A stretch of DNA of 24,000 bases from Clostridium sp. Lineage in GTDB: Bacteria; Bacillota; Clostridia; Clostridiales; Clostridiaceae. Every line of letters starts with the position of its first letter. Positions within the stretch are counted from its first letter, which is position 1. The notes beneath the pieces were generated by a model. It was not told where the DNA came from, made no database searches, and saw only the letters and a list, made by a program, of their open reading frames with translations. A program made the translations under genes and the position numbers. This document shows positions 1 to 19,382 of the stretch, piece by piece. Where the stretch lies: positions 1 through 24,000 of the forward strand of contig NZ_JBNMNU010000014.1 of assembly GCF_051278035.1 (NCBI RefSeq), written 5' to 3'.

Positions 1-534
1 CAACTGAATGTTCTCACATTCCACATTAAAACTTACGAAATACTTACCACTAGGTACTTTAGATATGGTGGCAAATAATATCTTGCCGATAAATTTTCTG
101 TGAAGTTTGGCCTTTATTGTGCCAAGCTTAGGCAATTATACTAAATTATCATCAAACTTTACTTTAATATTATTGTTAGTGAAATTGGTCATGTAAGAAT
201 AATTGTGGTCATGTTTTGATTTAAATTTAGGGAATCCTGAGTGTTCTTTAAAAAACTTTTTATAAGAACTATCTAAATTATATATTGAATTAGTTAAAGC
301 AAATTTATCCACATCTTTAAGCCATATAAATTCTTTTTTAAGCACTCGATTACAATAATTATTACAATCTATTTTAGACAAATATTTTTTGTCGACTTTA
401 TACGAATTTATTTTTTTAGATAATATTTGATTATATACAAATCTACAGCATCCAAAGGTTTTACCCATCTGATTTTTTTGTTGTTCGGTAGGATATATTC
501 TATATTTAAAGCCTTTTAACATAGATAAATTCAC
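1..534 (-). pseudogene. tnpB: TnpB (OrfB) RNA-guided endonuclease, N-terminal part, interrupted by an in-frame TAA at 136..138 and truncated by the window edge
   Basis: ORF 136..534 starts MNLSMLKGFKYRIYPTEQQKNQMGKTFGCCRFVYNQ, a canonical TnpB N-terminus. After the TAA the same frame continues LPKLGTIKAKLHRKFIGKILFATISKVPSGKYFVSFNVECENIQL down to position 1, which is the typical TnpB 'LPKIG..KAK.HR' segment. Confidence 0.85.
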
Positions 535-668
535 CTTCTTTCATCACTTGATTATACCATGCAAACATAGTACTATCAACGTTTAGTATATGTTATTTGA
601 CCATATTTTATACAATAGAACCTAACACCACTAACTCATGACTGAAGTCACGAGAGTGCGTGGTGAGT
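1..668 (-). mobile_element. IS200/IS605-family insertion sequence (tnpB-only, IS1341-like): left end plus the 5' part of tnpB. It continues past the window start.
   Basis: tnpB on the minus strand is preceded by a ~135-nt non-coding end (535..~668). This end carries nested imperfect palindromes: caccac 626..631 / gtggtg 660..665 around ctcatgac-tgaa-gtcacgag 635..654. That resembles the subterminal hairpins of IS200/IS605 ends. No tnpA lies between the end and tnpB. The neighbouring DUF58 frame loses family-like sequence at ~665-670, which places the junction. The right end and omega-RNA region are outside the window. Confidence 0.65.
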
Positions 669-831
669 CTTCAATAGTTGTAGTTAATGTGAATTCTTCA
701 TGTGGTTTCATTCTATTTTTATTGATACTTCTAGTTATTTTAAGATTAGAAAAGCCTTTTCTTCGTGTAAACTCACCGATTAAAGCGATAATAGCAACTA
801 TGGAAAGCATTAAAGCAAATCGTATAAACAT
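631..831 (-). pseudogene. DUF58-family protein (MoxR partner). Only the N-terminal ~55 codons remain; the 3' part was removed by the IS insertion.
   Basis: An N-terminal TM helix is followed by LKITRSINKNRMKPHEEFTLTTTIED, the DUF58 'v.R.l...r...Ge.v.v.l.v.N' start. It lies 10 nt downstream of moxR with its own GGGGGAG SD, matching the conserved moxR-DUF58 gene order. The last ~11 codons (SPRTLVTSVMS*) are read from IS-end sequence. Confidence 0.6.
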
Positions 832-18461: not shown

Positions 18462-19382
18462 TTACATTCCAAAAGTCTGTCTTAATACTCCGATACTACC
18501 TGGGTCTACATTTAAAACTACTGCATCCTTTACTCTCTCCTTGCTTTCAAAATCCAAACTTTCATAATCAGCCTTAACAGACGCTGTATCGGCAGTTGAG
18601 TCATAAGAAGGATCTTCGTTCATCATATTTATAGTTGATATCATTTTTGATATTACCTGCACCTCTTTGGACGTCTCAAGCTGAGATTTTGCAGTCATTA
18701 AACCCTCTTCAGCTTCTTTTAACATAGTTTTCGTACTCTTAATTTGAGGATTCTCTTTTATAATCAAATTAATAATATCTTTGTCTTTTTTTCCCGCTGC
18801 TTTATCTATCTTCTCCGCTGTGCCTAATATTTTATTATCTATAATTTTAAATTCCTCTATCTTAAATGGAACTACACTTGTATCAACTATTATAGAATTA
18901 CCATGCGCAGAAATATTATTATTATCAAGCTTTGAAATTTGTGAAACCACTAATTTTTTAGGAATTTTAATCTTTCCAATTTTAAAATTTTCAGCATCAA
19001 ATACAATATCTCCATTTAAAAGGTTTAATTATCCTTTTGAAGAGATTAAAAAATCAAGGTTTTTGTAACTAATAGGAGCCACCATTAAAAGCTTATCATC
19101 TGCCATTTCTATGTTGATTCCCTTTAGAGTCATGTCACCTTTAGTTTTAGGTTTAACAAAATATAAACTACTTATGTCATTTAAATCATTTTGAGTTAGT
19201 TCAAATTCCCCACCCTTTTCCTGTATACCTTTAAGTTTATCTAATACCTGTATGGAATCTGCCTTTTTAACGGCTACGTCTCCATTATATAAAGCTCCAC
19301 CTATTAAAGCTGCTAATGCCCCTATTATAATGATTAGTATATATATTAATTTATTTTTCTTTCGCTTATTATTTCTAGACAT
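18462..19382 (-). pseudogene. DUF2140/YpmS-like membrane-anchored protein split by one in-frame TAA at 19029..19031
   Basis: ORFs 19029..19382 and 18462..18950 share a frame. The 26 codons between them are open and read *LNLLNGDIVFDAENFKIGKIKIPKKLVVSQI. This parallels B. subtilis YpmS '...ENGDLILKVTKFSLGSLSIPISFVL' (from memory). Confidence 0.7.

Follow-up and report, generated by a model that had tools for sequence, protein, structure and literature searches.

Three genes in a short stretch of a Clostridium genome were each broken by an in-frame TAA that was followed by TT, which raised the question of whether such uniform lesions have a systematic cause or are independent products of gene decay. 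The stretch (24,000 nucleotides, hereafter the window) was the first 24 kb of contig C14 from a 4.48-Mb draft genome of a psychrophilic (cold-loving) Clostridium (297 contigs, 31.4% GC, 91.7% complete, and 4.2% contamination), and relatives for comparison were taken from the psychrophilic Clostridium group. The TAA–TT arrangement, reported in a preliminary description of the window, was confirmed for all three genes, namely tnpB, moxR, and a YpmS/DUF2140-like gene. Judged from the sequence comparisons below, the three TAA codons are very probably independent and recent single-base nonsense substitutions, i.e., ordinary gene decay.

The moxR–DUF58 operon and its insertion element

Two of the three stops were located at one end of the window, in the following features:

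1..679, minus strand: one end of a tnpB-only IS200/IS605-type element (HTH_OrfB_IS605), inserted in the DUF58 gene
1-534, minus strand: 5′ part of tnpB, cut by the contig end
136..138, minus strand: in-frame TAA in tnpB (context gta TAA ttg), replacing CAA (Gln)
631..831, minus strand: N-terminal remnant of DUF58, the partner gene of moxR, severed by the IS element, with the rest on contig C54
842..1789, minus strand: moxR AAA+ ATPase gene (AAA_3 plus AAA_lid_2), with one break just before the Walker B segment
1481..1483, minus strand: in-frame TAA in moxR (context agc TAA ttt), replacing CAA (Gln)
C54:743-1700, outside the window: remainder of DUF58, with its own in-frame TAA at C54:1142 (GAG/GAA in Clostridium estertheticum)

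The moxR gene retained complete AAA_3 (208 bits) and AAA_lid_2 (83 bits) Pfam domains, and both domains together with the DUF58 partner, which also adjoins moxR in C. estertheticum, identified it as a member of the MoxR family. Its orthologues displayed 80–84% nucleotide identity, and CAA was present at the stop site in all six same-genus orthologues. The metagenome scan at this site recovered three relatives, every one with a sense codon; an ENA fragment 97% identical to moxR had Q at the stop site (reading ...LLSQFVLAD), and a JGI metagenome contig with 92% nucleotide identity had CAA there.

The IS copy at the start of C14 ran on into C54:742..2 (reverse-complemented) across a gap of ~21 nt, and a full second copy with 97–98% identity was found on contig C3 (~56084-57525). 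At the site of the window stop, the C3 paralogue of tnpB read gtt CAA ttg, the base immediately 5′ of this codon also differing from the window copy, while at codon 63 it had TGA in place of the CGA of the window copy; the two tnpB copies were thus nonsense-broken at different C>T sites. Since DUF58 was split by the IS element and its remainder and moxR each contained a TAA, the operon carried three lesions, and the inserted tnpB added a fourth. The moxR and tnpB stops therefore share one decaying locus, a pattern typical of decay that follows an initial hit.

A DDE transposase gene (DUF772 plus DDE_Tnp_1) at ~4157 of contig C24 (minus strand) displayed 95% protein identity to a C. estertheticum copy that adjoins moxR in that species; it was far closer to the relative than housekeeping genes were, which points to recent sharing of a mobile element. 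This transposase gene was broken by TGA, where the relative had CAA, a two-base difference.

The YpmS/DUF2140-like gene

The third stop was located far from this operon:

18462..19382, minus strand: gene for a YpmS/DUF2140-like membrane-anchored protein, 306 codons on read-through, broken at codon 118
19029..19031, minus strand: in-frame TAA (context gga TAA tta), replacing a Lys/Glu codon, AAA or GAA

Translation of 19382..18462 gave 306 codons and a terminal TAA with TAA 19029-19031 as the sole interruption, and the family segment F.iG.i.iP, expected downstream of the stop, was found there as FKIGKIKIP, invariant across the family alignment; both points agreed with the preliminary description. 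The read-through product (306 aa with X at the stop) matched its closest full-length homologues in length and was 78–80% identical to them. Several close homologues bore PF09911 or the JGI name YpmS, PF09911 being present in homologues at 63–78% identity. Like the DUF2140/YpmS family (PF09911), the window protein had a membrane anchor at its N terminus and, after it, a conserved domain containing the F.IG.I.IP segment, but it differed in two respects: (i) it had a C-terminal extension of ~110 residues that was common only to close Clostridium relatives and (ii) its own score against DUF2140 PF09911 (20.2 bits, E = 4.5e-4) lay under the Pfam cut-off of 34.3 bits.

The codon at the stop site was AAA in six of seven same-genus relatives and AGA in the remaining one, while the closest protein homologues had K in four cases and E in four; an exact-pattern metagenome scan at this site gave no match. 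The gene was single-copy, with no paralogue in this assembly. It had nine private substitutions at otherwise invariant columns, within the range of 3–11 displayed by its homologues, and the lesion would thus be recent. Its loss appears to be very recent and separate from the events at moxR, DUF58, and the IS element. This stop, the one lesion of a single-copy gene with no other damage, could also stem from a consensus error or a minority allele. Two related genomes contained three tandem paralogues of this gene (G011:C39:16937-21824 and G012:C6:12805-17473), while the genome of the window had one copy, the broken one.

Interrupting stops across the genome

Interrupting stops were surveyed genome-wide with junction peptides: every in-frame stop flanked by 25 or more open codons both upstream and downstream was translated with X at the stop and searched by tblastn against a relative, C. 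estertheticum (2.0 Mb, corresponding to 37% of its genome). Two filters were used: (i) a loose one, in which the match spanned the stop, the relative was stop-free and in its longest frame, and coding scores were positive on both sides and (ii) a strict one, in which the HSP extended for 35 aa or more to either side of the stop. The loose list contained a few false calls, e.g., stops in 5′ leaders; an FtsW/RodA family gene on C86 and a V-ATPase F gene on C29 were rejected on inspection, as each stop proved to be in the 5′ leader, ahead of the true ATG. This survey, with its six-frame and coding filters, took the place of plain counting of stops in tblastn HSPs of all relative ORFs of at least 150 codons, which was overwhelmed by shadow ORFs and 5′-leader stops. 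A dicodon coding-potential scan for same-frame ORF pairs across the genome gave 169 candidates, missed moxR, and admitted antisense "shadow" frames, and it was too noisy and therefore kept for stop usage only.

The nonsense spectrum expected from codon usage (720,000 codons from long ORFs) was TAA 0.50, TGA 0.27, and TAG 0.23 under all three mutation models, and the probability of TT as the next two bases after a TAA was 0.083. The probability that three of three stops were TAA was ~0.12, and that of three TAA with any common 3′ dinucleotide was ~0.011; the TAA–TT triple as such had a nominal probability near 1e-3, which counts against coincidence. The local density (three stops in 24 kb versus ~0.2–0.3 expected from the genome-wide estimate) likewise counts against ordinary decay. 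Outside the window, the loose scan detected 22 in-frame stops (TAA 11, TGA 6, and TAG 5), matching the expected proportions (chi-square P = 0.999), and TT followed one of the 11 TAA (8.3% expected); the strict scan gave 12 events including two of the window genes, and those outside the window comprised TAA 4, TGA 4, and TAG 2, with TT after none of the four TAA. The rule "only TAA, always TT" thus failed beyond the window, because genome-wide stops were mixed and TT occurred at the expected rate. The nominally unlikely triple was noticed after the fact, and the common TT is a coincidence.

TAA itself was an expected product, since the codons one step away from it (AAA, GAA, CAA, TTA, and TAT) are common in this AT-rich genome. 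The one-step sense codons at the three sites, which had been proposed as a check for mutational bias, were CAA in moxR, CAA in tnpB, and AAA/GAA in the DUF2140-like gene, and the corresponding base changes were C>T, C>T, and A>T or G>T, respectively. Neither a single base change nor a single amino acid was common to the three genes, because Gln, Gln, and Lys/Glu were replaced by differing substitutions. The preliminary description took independent nonsense decay as its default reading, and this was borne out by the differing ancestral codons and by a stop mix and context that matched codon-usage expectation; its suggestion that the uniformity might have a systematic cause found no support, none being detected and the pattern not being repeated genome-wide. 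The outcome that it had named as refuting such a cause, interrupting stops with a chance-like rate and context across the genome, was observed for their context, while their rate was above that of the related complete genome.

With the same criteria applied in both directions, nonsense-broken genes numbered 12 (strict) and 24 (loose) in the draft versus three and seven in C. estertheticum, most events in the latter being gene junctions and one or two being real. Frameshift-like junctions numbered ~7 among 910 orthologous ORFs. The broken families were mostly accessory (transposases, integrases, chemotaxis receptors [MCP], GerA germination proteins, and ECF sigma factors), and further broken genes encoded an ABC transporter, a Zn-dependent alcohol dehydrogenase, a helicase-nuclease, and a second pyruvate kinase. 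Several genes had more than one lesion: the pyruvate-kinase paralogue on C4 had a stop plus a frameshift, the orthologous copy being intact; an epimerase gene (C51) and an ECF sigma gene (C232) had two stops each; and the Zn-dependent alcohol dehydrogenase gene on C140 was a multi-lesion pseudogene. If 22 errors were distributed at random over ~1500 genes, ~0.15 doubly broken genes would be expected. Real decay was therefore favored over random consensus error, given these multi-lesion genes and the mostly accessory families, and the several-fold excess looks like genuine gene decay, as far as sequence can tell. That the excess would reflect a real process particular to this lineage (decay after a change of lifestyle, or low-level ochre read-through easing selection against UAA) and not draft-assembly noise was considered very unlikely. 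A hypermutator was considered and rejected, as mutS and mutL had intact open frames.

Read-through, mutational signature, artefact, and decay

If UAA were suppressed, read through, or reassigned in this organism, the three genes would still give full-length protein; their ORFs were otherwise intact and in frame, and the ancestral Gln and Lys/Glu are residues inserted by classical ochre suppressor tRNAs. In Escherichia coli, such tRNAs (supB/supL/supC types, anticodon UUA) read UAA as Gln, Lys, or Tyr, which would match the ancestral residues here. However, a U after UAA makes for a strong termination context in E. coli. ARAGORN detected no tRNA with anticodon UUA among ~80 tRNA genes of the whole assembly, which at ~92% completeness could lack one such gene, and there was no sign that the ~70% of genes ending in TAA tolerate read-through. 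TAA ended 677 of 969 ORFs of at least 400 codons (70%) and so was not a rare terminator, and two PCRF-domain release-factor genes (RF1 and RF2) were open. Residues aligned to TAA sites were Q, Q, K/E, E, E, Y, L, and F, with no consistent amino acid. None of the three stops was shared by any relative, and the 95 nt from each stop folded no better than shuffled sequences (z = +1.15, +0.66, and -0.09). Thus, none of the marks of UAA reassignment (a rare terminator, a cognate tRNA, and one aligned amino acid) was seen, nor were those of programmed read-through (conservation of the stop and a 3′ signal that stimulates read-through). The stop reassignments known from bacteria are all of UGA (PMC8629427), and those in which it becomes Trp or Gly (NCBI tables 4 and 25; Codetta screen, PMC8629427) resemble the present case in having in-frame stops inside conserved genes, but here the codon was UAA, the main terminator, without cognate tRNA or consistent amino acid, and all three stop codons interrupted genes at the mutational ratio. 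Suppression or recoding of UAA is accordingly scarcely credible. ARAGORN also detected a tmRNA and a tRNA-Sec (anticodon tca), and some in-frame TGA of the coding scan are therefore probably selenocysteine codons and not lesions; a high-scoring pair on C3 at ~53205 (minus strand) was a candidate. A context-specific mutational signature, e.g., a damage- or methylation-linked process on NAATT favoring TAA–TT stops, would account for the first base of NAA-TT having changed to T in all three window cases, and two of these changes were C>T, the commonest bacterial mutation. Yet the third was A>T or G>T, TT was no commoner after TAA outside the window than expected, TGA and TAG interruptions occurred at their expected ratio, and mutS and mutL were intact, all of which makes such a signature highly improbable.

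Sequencing or assembly error is unlikely. On this reading, one or more of the stops would have entered a fragmented or metagenome-derived draft through consensus error or as a minority allele that the assembler fixed, and the real genes would be intact. The number of contigs, the incompleteness, and the contamination of the draft are consistent with this, as are its several-fold more nonsense-broken genes than in the complete relative, the pristine state of the DUF2140-like gene apart from its TAA, and the position of the tnpB stop, which lay 136 bases from a contig end and within a repeat, where a consensus is least reliable, next to a second base difference. Against it, lesions clustered in the same genes or operons (moxR–DUF58–IS and the genes on C4, C51, C140, and C232) far beyond the expected number of doubly hit genes, the affected families were accessory or paralogous, and the exact truncated products were on record in NCBI, JGI/IMG, and Logan, records that may not be independent of one another.

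Independent nonsense decay, the preferred reading, agreed with the sense codons found in orthologues or the paralogue and with stop type and context as expected genome-wide. The substitutions would be CAA>TAA in both moxR and tnpB and, in the YpmS/DUF2140-like gene, a change of AAA or GAA to TAA, and the new stops would inactivate these genes by ordinary release-factor termination. The IS element would first have split DUF58 of the moxR–DUF58 operon, after which moxR, the DUF58 remainder, and tnpB would each have gained a stop; the DUF2140-like gene would have been lost separately, in a genome with an above-average load of broken accessory genes. The phenomenon is already known: as in ordinary bacterial nonsense pseudogenes, there was one in-frame stop where relatives have a sense codon one step away, the flanks were still conserved, and lesions clustered in accessory genes and an IS-split operon. 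Nothing of substance set the present genes apart from such pseudogenes, only the local density and the TAA–TT context having stood out.

The three genes should thus be entered as pseudogenes, or at least bear the flag "internal stop", rather than serve as evidence of an unusual code; the finding has little import beyond annotation. Half of nonsense mutations yield TAA at 31% GC, and a run of identical stops is therefore to be expected. A 3′ dinucleotide common to three cases calls for caution, as it failed the genome-wide check. The high load of broken accessory genes may concern users of this draft for metabolic or comparative inference.
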